DNA of 32,027 nucleotides. Origin: Deltaproteobacteria bacterium TL4 (GTDB lineage: Bacteria > SAR324 > NAC60-12). The notes beneath the pieces are model-generated. The model was not told the origin of the DNA, did no database searches, and was given only the letters and a program-made list of their open reading frames with translations. The stretch is taken from the NCBI GenBank assembly GCA_051382335.1, contig JBBCAX010000396.1, positions 1 through 32,027 of the forward strand, written 5' to 3'. Shown here in pieces: positions 493 through 15,086 of the stretch. Positions within the stretch are counted from its first letter, which is position 1. Each line of letters begins with the position of its first letter. The translations under genes were made by a program, and so were the position numbers.

Positions 493-552
493 AAGTTTTT
501 TCCCTGGGAGCGAGGGCATCTTGCCCTCACCGGAGGGCAAGATGCCCTCGCT
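493..552. repeat. GGAG-class REP doublet (REPIN) split by the intron; right arm resumes at 1799-1814
   Basis: 493-528 AAGTTTTTTCCCTGGGAGCGAGGGCATCTTGCCCTC is the exact reverse complement of 533-552 joined to 1799-1814; loop ACCG; each arm has a GAGGGCA-nnn-TGCCCTC hairpin. Confidence 0.85.
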
Positions 553-1798
553 GTGCGCCTGGCATAGCGTTTAACTTGGTGGTGAAAGTCCACTCATTAC
601 CCCGACAGGAGGGAAAATGTAGTCAGAGTCAAGGGTGTCTAAAGAAACTTGGGACAGGCGCCTCAACAGAGGGAACCAACGAGTGTCGCAAGCCAATGAG
701 GAATCTGAAGGAAGACCGAGACAAATCTGCCGTCTAAACTAGGTGTGAACCTCCGGGAGGCGGAGGCAAGGGATGAGGTAGCAGCGATTACTAAAGTCCA
801 ATATCCTGAACGTAACTTGCAGACGTAGAAGAGGTAGGCGGGCAGAGAAAGTGAAACGAATTACCCAGGGAAGAGCCGACAGACTGGCGGATATCATAAC
901 TACGATGCTTGCCTCCGCTCAGCGACTGTGAAGACACAGAAGCGCATGTTTGTGGGTTTTCAGAGGAAGCCCTAGTAGTCGTAAAGTATCCTGCCAAGGA
1001 AGAGGTGGGCGACCCATCGGAGGAGAAAACAGGATACAAGCAGCAGGAAGCTGGAGGCGAAGGGCGAAACACAATAAAGACAGGAAGGATCAGAATAGGG
1101 ATGAATCGAGATTTGAAAAAGCCTGAAGCGGAAACGGAACGTAGCCGGAGAAACGGAGGGGAAATCAACGAAGAGAAGTCCCAAAGGCAGGCAAAATGAT
1201 ACAACCGAGTCTATTTGATACGGAGCCAAGAGGACTCTTTGAGCAGATAAGTTCGGTCGAACCATTGGCCAAAGCATACCAATGGGTACGAGCGAACAAA
1301 GGCTCCCCAGGGGTGGACGGAGTCCGTTCAAACCTATGGAATCCATTTGCAGGAAGAGTTAAGCCAACTCTCGCAAGAAGGGAAGCCCTCTAAGTCCCTT
1401 GTTGAGTAACATCATTTTGGATGAACTGGACAAGGAATTGGAGATTAGCCGCAATAGAAGCTCATATTCGGCGTCGGTTACGTTCCCAATTAGTAGGTGA
1501 ACAAAAACAGCGTCGGAATCTGTTTCGACGGCTTTTGGAACGGGGCGTCAATCGAGCCTCCTCCACGAAGGTTTTTCAAAAACATCGGGGACGCTGGTTT
1601 CTTTCTCACCTTCAAGCCGTGGAAAAAGCCTGGAACAATGAATGATTCCGACTCCAGGGACTGAAGTGTATCTCCGACTTTGCTTTACCCCACTGGCTTC
1701 CTTTATCCGTAGGGAAGACCGTATTGTGAGGAGCCGTGTACGGACCCGTAAGCACGGTTCTGTGAGCGGACGGCTCCGAGAGGAGCCTCCGACTCGAT
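553..1798 (+). mobile_element. Group II intron (IIC-like, class C/E type), internally deleted
   Basis: 5' end GTGCGCCTGGCAT at 553; short domain V GAGCCGTGTACGGACCCGTAAGCACGGTTC at about 1731-1760; domain VI ending ACTCGAT at 1798; removing 553-1798 restores a perfect inverted repeat; RT/maturase fragments inside. Confidence 0.92.
1196..1690 (+). pseudogene. Remnant group II intron reverse transcriptase/maturase
   Basis: Three fragments in different frames: RT0 (LFEQISSVEPLAKAYQWVRANKGSPGVDG), RT4 (GSPLSPLLSNIILDELDKELE, 1381-1443) and X/thumb domain (LAAIEAHIRRRLR...WFLSHLQAVEKAWNNE). No YADD; 3' boundary approximate. Confidence 0.9.
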
Positions 1799-1839
1799 CC
1801 CAGGGAAAAAACTTATTCTTTTCATAGTCCTTAATGATT

Positions 1840-4569
1840 TTAAGCCTGTAGGTATTTTAGAAGGCGTGCATTCAACTGGTATTCATATTTGAGATGTTTC
1901 CCAAAGGTTCTCAAATTGCTTGTATTTCGTGTCAATACCGGAACATTTCGTTTGCCGTAGGGCGTCTGTTTTAACGCGGTCACCAATTGATTGAGTTTTT
2001 CCGGAGCAGCAAAGATCGTAAACACATTTTTGGTATACGCATGAGTATAAGGCTCCAAAGGCGGATCTTCAAACCAATGCTGTAATTCTGAGAGCCCCTC
2101 TTGATAAACCCGGACATTGGCTTTCACGTCCGCGAGTCTTGGAAGTTGCTTATGAATCGCAGGATCGGTGACGGACAATAACTGTCCAAAACTTTGAAAA
2201 TTCAACGACTCTTCACTTGCGGACCAGACGGGTCGTTCTTGAGACCATTTTACATTTTGGGTTGCCTGCTTCAAAATGTAAGTCAAAGAGACAATATTCT
2301 TTTTCATTACCTCATATTCAAACACTGTCAGTTGTTGGGTTTTAAGTGCGTATTCCATGACCATAAACAGGGTTTTTCGTTTCATCTCCATGGCGATACA
2401 ATCGCTCATGGTAAATAACGTAAACACGGGAACGCCTCCCGAAAAATCAACATAACGAAAAGGATAGCGACCCCACTCAATCAGCCAAGGATCCGCGTTA
2501 GCAGGACTTTCAGACATGACTTGGAACGCTTTTTTCCCGGCTTGATAAAAGACGCTCACTCCTTGATTCGCCCCAACCTCCGGTGTTTGCGGAGGAGGGA
2601 GAGGGGCTGTGGCTTTCTCAGGGAGAACCTCTGCTGTCTGTTGAAAACGAACACGTTCATAGTTCAGGATGGATTGCTGTGATTGATGCATTTCAATCAA
2701 CTGTTTCCCCAACTGAACTTTTTGCTCCATGAAAAAATCAAAGTATTTCCCATAAAGATGACCTGTCAAAGTGGATTGAAGCTGATCATAAACTTTCTGA
2801 ATTTGAGGACTATAGATCAAATCAGAAACCCACTCCGGCTTTAATTCTTGCAGCGAGATATCTTTTTTACGTGCAACCCAACGTTGGATATCACCAAGGA
2901 TACTTGATAGAAATTGGGTATATTGAAAACGGGTCAATAAACTGGGATAGCGGATTTCCAAAAGATCATGCAGCTCTTGAATTGCCTTTTTGAAATCATA
3001 AAATCTCAACATGTTGTTACGATCATAAACACTGATCTTCTTTCTCCTTAATTTAATTTTGTCCGCAAGCCCCGATACAAGATCGGTCATTTCCGGGAGT
3101 TGGTTGAGACACACCTCCAATTCAATGGGGACCATTTGGCCAGACCCCAGTAAATAACCTAAAAAATCTCGATAGGCGCGGTTAGGAAGATCCAATAAAA
3201 GCAATTCCCCCAAGGTAAAATATTGAAAATGAGGACGAGCATACTCAATGGTCAGAAAACAATAGGGGAGACCACTCAATTCAAAAAGATAATTTTGCTC
3301 AAGAGCCTGTTTTGAATTAAAATGGAAGGTATTAAAAATAGTTTCTTTGGGAATGATATTGTCATAACTTTTATGAATATCTAGCTCTTCCACAAATTCC
3401 GGAAATTCTTCCAAAGAAAGTGTGCCCTTGACAAACACATGCTGAATCAGTTTTTCGTTTTTAAATGTTGATTGGATTACACTTTGGTAATCCACAATCA
3501 TGCGCAGCGTTTCAACGATGGTTTGATAATGGTCAGGGAGGTCATAATCGTGACTTTGATAATAAGTTTTGATCTCTGAGAATATTCTTAAAACATCGGT
3601 TTGTGATTGCAGGTAATCCTGCTTGAGAACCTTCATCCGGTCTTCGGGATGCAGATGCCCCAGGAACAGAGATAACTGGGAAAAATCCTGTTGTTTCAAG
3701 TATTGGTATTGTTCCGCAAATTGTTCTTTAGGATTTAAAAAATGAAATTGTTCAAATTCCTGCTCAATCCGATCGGCCTTGAGCTGCGAAGGATCAATGT
3801 CAATGATCGGAATCAGCTCCTTCAGAACGGCACAAATTTCAGGCGCCGCGATCTCTCCCTCGGAAGTTGAAATCAGTAACGCCTTACTCATAATTAAATA
3901 CAACCGCCTTAGATCATTGATGAATAACGGTTTTTCTCCATCAATAATACAGTCTAAGGCCTCAGCACAAATGAGTTGTATCGCACTCTGAAATTGTTGT
4001 TTGAACGGATTAAAGCGCTTGGGTTGCAGCAACGTCAATTGAACAATTTTATCAAATTTGTCATAAATCATGACAAACTGTGTGAAACGAAACAGCCAAC
4101 GAGAAATTCTATTGCTGATATACATGTAAATGTAGCTACTGTACCTGGCCCTGAACTTCAAAAAATCATGAATCAGATCAAAAACCAACATAGGATTGGT
4201 GATGAAGAGAATCGCATCCACTTCAAGCGGAATTTGAAGATAATTAGTCCCGTTGGGATCGAGTTTCTTTTTGATGAGGAAATTAAAAAGCTGAGGATTT
4301 GCCAGTCTCGCGAGACTCAGGGTTGTAATATTTAAACGACTTGCAATTCCATCTTCATCATCAATCTCCAACACTTCTTTCATTTCTTCAGAAACCGTAT
4401 CTCCCTTGGATTGATCCAGAAGTTTCAAGCGGGCATTGACCAACTGCGTGTTGTACGTATCGAATTCTTGGTAAAACTTCTTGGAGTTGGCTTGCAAAAA
4501 ACTGTCAATTCGTTTGAATTGACGCATCATTTGTTCTTGGCGCTTTATCGCCTCTTGAGACTCACTCAT
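1840..4569 (-). CDS. Large hypothetical protein (909 aa) with internal duplication
   Basis: Long uninterrupted ORF with ATG start; no family motif recognised. Confidence 0.85.
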   Translation of the reverse strand: MSESQEAIKRQEQMMRQFKRIDSFLQANSKKFYQEFDTYNTQLVNARLKLLDQSKGDTVSEEMKEVLEIDDEDGIASRLNITTLSLARLANPQLFNFLIKKKLDPNGTNYLQIPLEVDAILFITNPMLVFDLIHDFLKFRARYSSYIYMYISNRISRWLFRFTQFVMIYDKFDKIVQLTLLQPKRFNPFKQQFQSAIQLICAEALDCIIDGEKPLFINDLRRLYLIMSKALLISTSEGEIAAPEICAVLKELIPIIDIDPSQLKADRIEQEFEQFHFLNPKEQFAEQYQYLKQQDFSQLSLFLGHLHPEDRMKVLKQDYLQSQTDVLRIFSEIKTYYQSHDYDLPDHYQTIVETLRMIVDYQSVIQSTFKNEKLIQHVFVKGTLSLEEFPEFVEELDIHKSYDNIIPKETIFNTFHFNSKQALEQNYLFELSGLPYCFLTIEYARPHFQYFTLGELLLLDLPNRAYRDFLGYLLGSGQMVPIELEVCLNQLPEMTDLVSGLADKIKLRRKKISVYDRNNMLRFYDFKKAIQELHDLLEIRYPSLLTRFQYTQFLSSILGDIQRWVARKKDISLQELKPEWVSDLIYSPQIQKVYDQLQSTLTGHLYGKYFDFFMEQKVQLGKQLIEMHQSQQSILNYERVRFQQTAEVLPEKATAPLPPPQTPEVGANQGVSVFYQAGKKAFQVMSESPANADPWLIEWGRYPFRYVDFSGGVPVFTLFTMSDCIAMEMKRKTLFMVMEYALKTQQLTVFEYEVMKKNIVSLTYILKQATQNVKWSQERPVWSASEESLNFQSFGQLLSVTDPAIHKQLPRLADVKANVRVYQEGLSELQHWFEDPPLEPYTHAYTKNVFTIFAAPEKLNQLVTALKQTPYGKRNVPVLTRNTSNLRTFGKHLKYEYQLNARLLKYLQA

Positions 4570-5848: not shown

Positions 5849-5997
5849 CTAGGAGTCTGTCCGAGAATGTGATGTAGGGTGTGCTTAAGCGAAGCGAGCG
5901 CACCGGAAAGCTTGCTGTTTCCTTATTTTTGGTGCGCTCGCTTCGCTTAAGCGGCACCCTACTTAGGTTCAACTTCTATTCTCAGACAACCACCTGG
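5849..5997. repeat. REPIN (inverted GTAG REPs 5874-5904 and 5931-5962) enclosed by IS5-like inverted ends
   Basis: GTAGGGTGTGCTTAAGCGAAGCGAGCGCACC ... GGTGCGCTCGCTTCGCTTAAGCGGCACCCTAC; outer GAGTCTGTCCGAGAAT (5853-5868) and ATTCTCAGACAACCAC (5978-5993), bounded by CTAG / CTGG. Confidence 0.8.
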
Positions 5998-9561: not shown

Positions 9562-10782
9562 TTAAAAAATCTCCAGACCAATCAGGGTGATATCATCATC
9601 ATAATAAATTTTATTGCTAAAATCTAAGCCAAAATCATAAATTTTTTCCAGTAATTTCTCAACAGGGACCTGGTTATTTTTCAAAAGAAACGCATCCAAG
9701 CCTTCGGAATCAATCCTCTGACCTTGAGAACTTTCCATTTCAATAATCGCGTCGGTATACATCAATATTTTATCACCGGGGAGCAATTGAATCTCCTTTT
9801 CTTCAAACTCAACCAGGCCTGGAGGGAATTGTCCCACAAAAATTCCCGAAGTATTGAGCTTGAGGATGTGGGGTTCTTTCTGGTTTCGAATAATCAGGGC
9901 TGGAGGGTGTCCGGCATTGGAGAAGGATAGTTTTTGGGACTGGGTATCATAAATGGCGTAAAACATGGTGGCGAAGGTGCCATCCGGCATTTTTTCAGCT
10001 AACATCTCGTTGGTGAGATCCAGCGCGGTCTGGGGAGAGGCCAAGTTATAGGCTGAGTTTTTAAAGGTAACAGCCACCATAAATGACAGCAATGCGGCAG
10101 GAATACCGTGTCCCGTAACATCTGCGATTAAGAAACCGTACTTATTGCTCCCTAAGGAAAGCACATCATAAAAATCACCACCAATTTTATCCATGGGCAC
10201 ATATTTCACCGCGATTTTAGCGTTAGGTAACTCAGGGAGTGTATCCGGAAACAAAATCTGTTGAGTGCCTCTGGCCCTGTCCAGTTCATTGTCCATCTGC
10301 TGTTTTTGCTGCATGATGGTTTGATACGAATTTTGTAAGGCTGCTTCAGCAAGTTTTCGTGCCTCAATTTCTTCAACAAGTAAATGGAAAGCGCGGCGAC
10401 GCTCAATATAGCCTACCGTTCGTGCTTCGAGTTCTTGAGAAAGGAAAGGTTTGCTAAGGTAATCGGTCGCTCCCAATTCAAACGCTTTGATCTTGGTCTG
10501 TTCATCGGTATGTGAGGTTAGGAATAATACGGGCAGATTCTCAAGTTCAGGAACACTTCGTATATGTTTGATCAACTCTAAGCCTCCCATAACCGGCATT
10601 TCAATGTCTGTTATGACCAGTTCAATTTTATTTTTTCCCAAGAGTTCTATCGCGATTTTTCCATTTTCCGCCTCGAAAATATCATAGTTTTTATTGCTGA
10701 TTTCTAAAAAAACTCTTCGAATGGACATGCGGATAAATCGGCTATCATCAACGATCAAAACACGATAGTAATCTGTTTCCAT
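9562..10782 (-). CDS. Response regulator fused to SpoIIE/RsbU-like PP2C phosphatase
   Basis: VLIVDDS, TDIEMP, KPF receiver; GGDFY, ADVTGHG, NAGHPP, YTDAI, DDIT phosphatase motifs. Confidence 0.93.
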   Translation of the reverse strand: METDYYRVLIVDDSRFIRMSIRRVFLEISNKNYDIFEAENGKIAIELLGKNKIELVITDIEMPVMGGLELIKHIRSVPELENLPVLFLTSHTDEQTKIKAFELGATDYLSKPFLSQELEARTVGYIERRRAFHLLVEEIEARKLAEAALQNSYQTIMQQKQQMDNELDRARGTQQILFPDTLPELPNAKIAVKYVPMDKIGGDFYDVLSLGSNKYGFLIADVTGHGIPAALLSFMVAVTFKNSAYNLASPQTALDLTNEMLAEKMPDGTFATMFYAIYDTQSQKLSFSNAGHPPALIIRNQKEPHILKLNTSGIFVGQFPPGLVEFEEKEIQLLPGDKILMYTDAIIEMESSQGQRIDSEGLDAFLLKNNQVPVEKLLEKIYDFGLDFSNKIYYDDDITLIGLEIF

Positions 10783-14863: not shown

Positions 14864-15086
14864 GGATACCCCCTTTAAGACGGGACAAAATTGTAGGGTG
14901 CGCTTAAGCGTAGCGAGCGCACCGAACAATCTGTGACTGGTGCGCTTAAGCGTAGCGAGCGCACCGAACAAATCTGTGGCTGGTGCGCTTAAGCGAAGCG
15001 AGCGCACCGAACAATCTGTGGCTGGTGCGCTCGCTTCGCTTAAGCACACCCTACATGAAGTGTTGTTCCGCCTTAAGTGAGTAGCC
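14864..15086. repeat. Tandemly expanded REPIN (three direct plus one inverted REP, 14893-15054) inside imperfect outer inverted repeats
   Basis: Units GGTGCGCTTAAGCG(T/A)AGCGAGCGCACC at 14897, 14939, 14982 and an inverted copy at 15024; near-identical linkers; outer GGATACCCCCTTTAAGACGGGACAA / TTGTTCCGCCTTAAGTGAGTAGCC. Confidence 0.85.

Follow-up and report, generated by a model that had tools for sequence, protein, structure and literature searches.

Introduction

Group II introns of class IIC carry a CGC catalytic triad and insert at terminators "or other inverted repeats" (PMC1702495, Toor 2006); both terminators and attC sites are named as their targets (PMC4424553; PMC8643678). A genome survey found IIC introns mostly after terminators (PMC8919778), and introns whose proteins lack an endonuclease insert at the replication fork (PMC4424553; PMC8919778). 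An association with REP elements is recorded for a group II intron of Pseudomonas putida KT2440, two of whose nine copies are REP-associated (Table 1 of Tobes and Pareja, PMC1525189). This was the only such entry in the literature we searched, consisting mostly of openly accessible papers, in which we found no paper on a REP-targeting intron clade; likewise, a REP target of the kind described below is not covered in the available parts of PMC3552965 and PMC12584367.

We analyzed a 32,027-nt stretch of DNA from Deltaproteobacteria bacterium TL4 (contig JBBCAX010000396.1, here C396), referred to as the window, in which a first-pass annotation had noticed a group II intron inserted in a REP. We delineated the intron and its protein gene, reconstructed the pairings with its target site, and compared its insertion sites with those of related introns in other genomes, a plasmid and metagenomes.

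Results

Organization of the intron locus

The intron site lies between the end of a DUF6399 gene and a convergent 909-aa ORF without a Pfam match, which ends at 1840. The following features were identified in this region.

288-300, + strand: left end of a TA-flanked MITE-like cassette carrying the REP doublet; one copy, the first, of a 10-bp target duplication occupies 291-300
301-480, no strand assigned: 180-bp inverted-repeat element (MITE) inside the cassette left end, with a 10-bp duplication at 291-300 and 481-490
493-528, + strand: REP left arm, with GGAG at 507-510 followed by REP hairpin 1 at 512-528
529-552, + strand: end of the 5' exon, comprising the spacer ACCG, the inverted REP hairpin 2 (533-549) and IBS1 CGCT (549-552)
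553-1798, + strand: class C-type (IIC-like) group II intron of 1246 nt, internally deleted, matching Rfam RF02001 and RF00029
777-792, + strand: EBS1 stem-loop with EBS1 = AGCG at 783-786, supported by covariation with the last exon bases and by stem covariation
828, + strand: EBS3 = G, complementary to the first 3' exon base C1799; G>T in the relatives X1 and X2
1196-1726, + strand: remnant of the RT/maturase (IEP) gene, found by tblastn with homologues P0011, P0007 and P0006; in-frame stops
1730-1798, + strand: domain V (AGC triad) and domain VI; distal stem of domain V 2 bp shorter than in the Rfam model
1799-1814, + strand: 3' exon, the remainder of the REP arm; right end of the cassette truncated

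The intron begins with GTGCG and ends with AT, in agreement with the group II consensus GUGYG/AY. Its Rfam matches are RF02001 (686-861, 79.8 bits) and RF00029 (1729-1798, 48.4 bits), and it comprises domains I-VI including the catalytic domain V. As in class C, the distal stem of domain V is shorter by 2 bp, which corresponds to a 4-position gap against RF00029. The likely epsilon-prime position, for which an AGGAA bulge is described in class C (PMC1702495), reads AGGAG. As regards the class C trait of having no EBS2, the RF02001 match is full-length and a hairpin is present in the 5' exon. The catalytic triad, however, is AGC instead of CGC; therefore the window intron is a member of a class C-like sub-lineage and not a canonical IIC intron.

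The IEP gene of this copy is broken. In addition to the in-frame stops, its reading frame shifts once near 1323, and two large deletions inside the gene remove about residues 62-203 and 224-343 of the 437-aa homologues; the contig of relative X1 has 359 additional letters at 1444/1445 of the window, at one of these deletions. A check of the genome's 20 RT matches revealed no intact IEP of the window intron in the assembly. The close IEP homologues possess RVT_1 and GIIM as their only Pfam domains and no endonuclease domain. Among solved structures, one of these homologues, P0011, is matched best by the GsI-IIC RT (6AR1, E 6.6e-99) and 7UIM (E 1e-87). These domains and structure matches, together with a UFBoot-100 grouping described below, assign the close homologues to class C IEPs.

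The MITE at 301-480 has 34-bp inverted ends and 12 full copies in the genome, several with 10-bp target duplications; as these copies are 97-100% identical, the element has been active recently.

Pairing of EBS1 and EBS3 with the target site

A scan with homologue P0011 yielded 80 metagenome loci, and 57 loci, genome and plasmid loci included, passed the domain I profile. The EBS1 test set consisted of 45 distinct related sites with a 5' exon, compared with 20000 shuffles. Pairing between the bases corresponding to 783-786 and the final four bases of the exon is seen at 124 of 180 positions versus 66.0 +/- 5.7 in shuffled sets, none of the 20000 reaching 124, and EBS1 windows slid off 783-786 gave only 19-73 pairs. 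The excess is retained when each of the 19 EBS1 types is represented by one site (55.1 versus 22.4 of 76 positions). By EBS1 position, pairs are formed in 39, 32, 39, 14 and 10 of the 45 sites; given the low counts at positions 4 and 5, the EBS1-IBS1 core of the family is 3 bp.

The stem-loop at 777-792 is present as annotated at first pass, and the lower 4 bp of its stem covary across 19 relatives, the top pair mostly not being formed. The five-base EBS1 proposed there, AGCGA (783-787) pairing with TCGCT, was placed in the right loop and holds for AGCG at 783-786, but the fifth base was rejected: the A787-T pair fits the window but is found in related sites only at chance level. Folding 553-900 as a single sequence gave no useful signal (z 0.04). 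The EBS3 base G828, absent from the first-pass annotation, emerged from family covariation: in 30 of 47 sites, versus 17.1 +/- 2.7 in shuffled sets, position 828 is Watson-Crick complementary to the base that opens the 3' exon. The intron thus has the short (3-4 bp) EBS1-IBS1 and the EBS3-IBS3 pairings of class C. No EBS1-IBS1 match was found in the Thiomargarita copy.

The target REP family

A loose pattern detects 302 units of the target repeat, distributed over about 178 loci and 108 contigs. Of the 267 units recognized by a stricter pattern, 54 are located in open frames of at least 150 aa versus 83.5% of the genome, so the family has the many dispersed, mostly extragenic copies and the inverted doublets that characterize REPs and REPINs. 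Inverted units of the same family flank a protein on contig C336 that passes the NCBIfam model NF047646 (REP_Tyr_transpos; 95.4 bits, cut-off 80), a REP-associated tyrosine transposase (RAYT), which justifies the name REP. The first-pass view of the target as an abundant and largely intergenic REP is therefore confirmed. The foot tetranucleotide is GGAG, at the place 0-2 nt before the hairpin where GT[AG]G is expected (PMC6006769). The feet described in PMC8266576, PMC6006769, PMC3733652 and bioRxiv 10.1101/119735 are GT[AG]G, CnGA and CGTC, and the word GGAG is absent from the available main texts of these four papers. By analogy only, GGAG could serve as a guide for the RAYT.

Many of the REP doublets are found inside the TA-flanked MITE-like cassette, and TA precedes 148 of the 169 cassette ends that lead into a REP. 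We take the TA duplications at the cassette ends to be IS630-like. Between cassette-type ends within 2.2 kb, we detected no transposase; the TA-flanked ends suggest that another mover besides the RAYT may act. On contig C237 (about 10630-10735; L023), a TA-flanked REP cassette is located inside the RT/maturase gene of a sister intron, with a CRISPR array just upstream, which indicates that the cassette moves.

The genome has several REP/RAYT systems, with 12 Y1_Tnp matches. The RAYT on C336 and its flanking REPs (about 3030-3710; L026 1235-1910) are in frame within a 1207-aa open frame, the other parts of which look DNA methylase-like by eye, and additional REP doublets are in frame farther along it. 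On C135 (17115-17380; L009), a GGAG REP cassette breaks the start of a REP-type Y1 transposase gene flanked by GTAG repeats. GTAG-headed REP clusters of other families are present in the window at 219-251, 5872-5952 and 14892-15056.

Intron copies in the genome

Copies of the window intron were found on contigs C103, C222 and C42, and fragments on C200 (3' part) and C74. The tabulation of flanks that the first-pass annotation had called for gave a uniform result, with all seven assembled junctions at the same REP position, CT|CC: four 5' junctions (C396, C103, C222, C42) and three 3' junctions (C396, C103, C222). The four 5' junctions are preceded by differing unique upstream DNA, one of them having a private SNP and one belonging to another REP subfamily. 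Under a strict site rule (7-bp hairpin plus CGCT|C), 105 of 147 genome sites are REPs (about 70%), and the chance that four of four junctions fall at REPs is about 0.26; under a loose NGCT|Y rule, REPs account for 106 of 660 sites and this chance is about 0.0007. Therefore, if pairing is strict, the four junctions require no REP-specific recognition.

The genome also contains a sister intron, 70% identical and with EBS1 GCUU. It has two 5' junctions, both within the doublet spacer of the REP family targeted by the window intron. Of its four 3' flanks, one is an IS200-type end, one a tandem repeat, and the other two are unique. The assembly is fragmented (445 contigs), and intron pieces end contigs with 127-nt overlaps. 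At C74 1-700 (L028), a piece of the window intron is joined straight to the 3' half of another group II intron, for which a chimera, a twintron remnant and an assembly join are candidate explanations.

The perfect palindrome and the empty sites

Excision of 553-1798 restores a perfect 36-bp inverted repeat around ACCG, and the junction falls within CT|CC, 3 nt past the hairpin at 533-549, both as first annotated. The interpretation of this repeat as a restored empty site did not survive. Of 164 matches to a REP-doublet pattern, 3 have the symmetric form, and each of these immediately precedes an intron copy, whereas the 53 empty doublets with the same ACCG spacer are asymmetric. Among ACCG-spacer doublets the second loop is of the GGGA type in 53 and AAGA in three, plus one empty ATCG variant; the hairpin-2 loop of the window has the atypical AAGAT form. 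The 3' flank of the C222 copy follows only GGGAC loops in empty sites (7/7), and no 5' junction has a GGGAC loop. Since the symmetric form was seen only before intron copies, the perfect palindrome does not represent the normal state of an empty site and provides no evidence of a pre-integration allele. The symmetric 5' exon hints at 5'-exon conversion or swapped flanks.

Three candidate routes would lead to this form: ordinary gene conversion among intron copies, a single ancestral event combined with flanks exchanged during assembly, or co-conversion by an intron to which additional 5' exon is attached. Consistent with the last, cryptic 5' sites lying upstream, after stem-loops, are used in B.h.I1 (PMC1702495). 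An extended version would describe the AGC-triad class C lineage as a parasite of REP repeats that is re-aimed, by changes of one or two bases in EBS1/EBS3, at the most common palindrome of each host and overwrites the target hairpin loop with that of the donor. If a linear intron were cut at a cryptic site past the first hairpin, 20 nt of 5' exon would remain attached to it and would replace the homologous target segment. Such overwriting would explain why the AAGAT loop is found in all three intron-bearing ACCG doublets versus GGGA-type loops in the 53 empty ones, and would make introns agents of REP homogenisation; we nevertheless regard this version as improbable.

The intron lineage and its target sites

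In a tree of 106 IEP proteins, the homologues form a clade of 77 proteins (FastTree support 0.945). In a second tree, the clade comprises 22 of 47 proteins (UFBoot 97) and falls into a group with UFBoot 100 that also contains class C references of the terminator and attC types, whose class labels derive from target sites and triads as read in this analysis; nodes deciding between a nested and a sister position relative to these references have UFBoot 33-48. The RT phylogeny proposed at first pass thus sets the clade apart within the class C group, but the window remnant itself, too damaged for a tree, was placed by similarity only (tblastn). The AGC triad is present in 50 of the 51 readable domain Vs of the clade, and EBS1 occurs in 19 different sequences.

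We surveyed 41 distinct sites of the clade for which 45 nt or more of 5' exon could be read, having dropped shorter ones and four near-duplicates, and compared them with 19 controls (12 canonical class C-type and 7 neighbouring-clade introns) and a background of 6754 windows. Insertion after an intrinsic terminator or attC, the class C habit, was found neither for the window intron, whose site is a REP doublet, nor as a trend of the clade: T-rich 5' exons precede none of the 41 clade sites versus 15 of 19 controls. A GT[AG]G-hairpin rule matched 9 of 41 clade sites versus 3.8% of the background windows and 0/19 controls, and with a GNA mini-hairpin rule added the numbers rose to 17/41 versus 4.8% and 1/19, the REP-like rules having been set after the flanks were viewed and the 41 sites being related, not independent. 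Neither rule is matched at 24 of the 41 sites, and one of the nine GT[AG]G matches (L086) looks like chance. An own-genome Y1 transposase search found no RAYT beside the metagenome loci of the clade and only one outside it, at L076. For this reason, the GTAG hairpins at these clade loci are called REPs on shape, on doublets (L055, L065, L073, L102) and, for L037, on a match to a family that flanks a RAYT.

Relatives of the intron are rare in samples of GTDB genomes (2/61, 4/400 with one further genome unscored, and 1/55); by protein, 3 of 88 GTDB genomes have relatives, canonical class C matches counted in. A DNA pattern scan for the EBS1 region detected one locus in genome contigs and none in metagenome contigs, and viral contigs contained no relative. 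Class C-type introns occur directly past the 3' end of another intron, forming tandem arrays, at L012, L013, L038, L107 and L115. Apparent duplications of 6-11 nt across intron junctions at L064, L075 and L037 are probably flanks of different copies.

The closest relatives, X1 and X2 (one contig each, depth 5.8 and 2.4), are about 96% identical to the window intron in domain I. They keep EBS1 AGCG, have T at 828 (EBS3 = U), and their 5' flanks differ from that of the window. X2 is preceded by a CCCAGGG..CCCTGGGCT hairpin of a form also present beside the Y1 transposase on contig C90 of this genome; here the hairpin is followed by G or A in 11/11 cases, as EBS3 = U would need.

An intron of genome G009 is 86% identical, with EBS1 AACG and EBS3 G. 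Its 3' exon belongs to a repeat with 41 matches, the empty copies of which have a hairpin followed by CGTT|C in 4/5 examined (20 exact motifs), in the geometry of the window site; the actual 5' flank is another, single-copy hairpin. The repeat is not located beside the one Y1 transposase of that genome, which also contains five GGAG-REP motifs. A dispersed palindromic element with inverted ends and at least 41 matches was noted there (L148-L152). BLAST shows single-copy 5' flanks for the introns of G009, Thiomargarita and G084.

On the closed Methylomonas plasmid CP157006.1, two 5' junctions are located at one position of a palindromic repeat, an uninterrupted empty copy of which lies nearby. 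The intron-hosting repeat, of ~290 bp, is inserted among CRISPR-like direct repeats (about 147250-150900; L125/L135). Similar elements flank introns in L063, L064, L074, L086 and L105, and repeats of this type had no Rfam match in the five loci scanned. The 5' and 3' flanks of introns often disagree (G009; sister intron on C431), so many assemblies are probably chimeric or recombined.

Discussion

The window contains a non-autonomous class C-type intron inserted at CT|CC of a REP doublet. We consider it probable, though well short of certain, that it belongs to a clade which has moved off T-rich terminators and been retuned to dispersed palindromes of its hosts, its fit to GGAG being local. 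The mechanism is expected class C biology, the known rule of a hairpin plus short pairing being applied here to dispersed palindromic repeats. The intron likely arrived by reverse splicing into single-stranded DNA exposing the hairpin and bases complementary to EBS1 AGCG and EBS3 G. Class C biology suggests that the hairpin would be recognized in single-stranded DNA at the replication fork, and that this copy was mobilised either when still intact or in trans. Comparison across the clade suggests that its members keep the hairpin and the 3/4-bp rule but have left T-rich terminators, and that small changes in EBS1/EBS3 may retune them to numerous host palindromes, among them REP, REP-like and MITE-like elements and an IS200-type end.

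This reading has to be weighed against ordinary class C opportunism, in which any hairpin with a 3-4-base match is used, REPs merely dominate such sites and nothing has shifted beyond a non-T EBS1. The predominance of REPs among strict-rule sites of this genome (105/147), the unrelated hairpins used by the sister intron, the wording "or other inverted repeats" of Toor 2006 (PMC1702495) and the two REP-sited copies among nine in P. putida all agree with opportunism. It accounts poorly for a clade that is phylogenetically distinct and has the AGC triad almost throughout, in which 19 EBS1 sequences coexist with a complete lack of T-rich sites among the 41 surveyed, and in which two sister introns each fit, at both EBS1 and EBS3, an abundant repeat of their own host; we hold it possible but doubtful. 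In a far stricter model, closest to the first-pass annotation, recognition of the REP foot GGAG/CTCC is the speciality of the lineage and directs its homing. All seven junctions are at CT|CC, three of the five paired bases read CTCC, and among the phylum genomes searched the REP motif and the intron occur together only in the present genome and G009 (2/88; 2/61). Close relatives (86-96% identical) are nevertheless found at other palindromic repeats with EBS1 or EBS3 altered: X1, X2 and G009 have other flanking sequences, the last despite its GGAG-REP motifs. The 5' junctions of the sister intron lie in the doublet spacer. Moreover, clade members in GTAG REPs occupy the 3' arm or loop, not the foot. 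Insertion of close relatives at non-REP sites is what the first-pass annotation had itself named as refuting its proposal; the strict model is thereby largely refuted and retains very little probability. From these sequence comparisons, the fit to the GGAG foot appears to be local to the window intron and not a signal read by the lineage; of the proposed specialization for REPs, the dependence on the GGAG foot does not survive, but a looser claim does, a shift of the clade from terminators to dispersed palindromic repeats.

The whole arrangement could also be an assembly chimera of repeats, with the intron not truly in this REP. The fragmentation into 445 contigs, the 127-nt overlaps at intron pieces and the fact that the symmetric form is never empty are what one would expect from such an artefact. 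Yet the same base is reached at all four 5' junctions, although the unique DNA upstream differs between them, and EBS1 and EBS3 predict this base independently; flank swaps between copies, although possible, would not create the site. A chimera is thus very improbable. Under the preferred reading of a retuned class C-type clade, dispersed palindromic repeats would be a third target class beside terminators and attC, and the 19 EBS1 types a natural series of matched EBS1/EBS3-target pairs, which could be used to test how a ribozyme with only 4-5 bp of specificity plus a hairpin selects its sites. It would also link two selfish systems, repeats amplified by RAYT or MITE supplying landing pads for introns and a REP cassette having jumped into the sister intron gene on C237. 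The surprise is moderate, the mechanism being that expected for class C and the IEP of the window copy being broken.

Comparison with known systems

The closest described systems are the terminator-type class C introns B.h.I1 (PMC1702495) and GsI-IIC, which share with the present clade the short EBS1-IBS1 pairing, EBS3, the 5' exon hairpin and the shortened domain V, as well as an endonuclease-less IEP of about 437 aa. In contrast to them, the clade has an AGC instead of a CGC triad, a separate IEP clade, targets without a T tail (0/41) and a highly variable EBS1. The IIC-attC introns (PMC4424553) likewise are a class C subgroup that lands on the hairpin of another mobile system; the present clade differs from them (L129 groups elsewhere), its target is a REP doublet or other dispersed palindrome, and its site is not fixed lineage-wide.

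Insertion sequences that target REPs (IS1397, IS621, ISPa11, ISPpu9/10, ISRm22; PMC1525189) also use these elements as numerous intergenic targets. Unlike these DNA transposons, the intron is targeted by ribozyme base pairing and a hairpin. Finally, the target itself resembles the REP/REPIN-RAYT systems (PMC6006769, PMC8266576, PMC3733652) in the tetranucleotide followed by 1 nt and a hairpin, in its inverted doublets, in its many intergenic copies and in flanking a REP-associated tyrosine transposase, and differs from those described in its GGAG foot and in the location of many doublets inside a TA-flanked MITE-like cassette.
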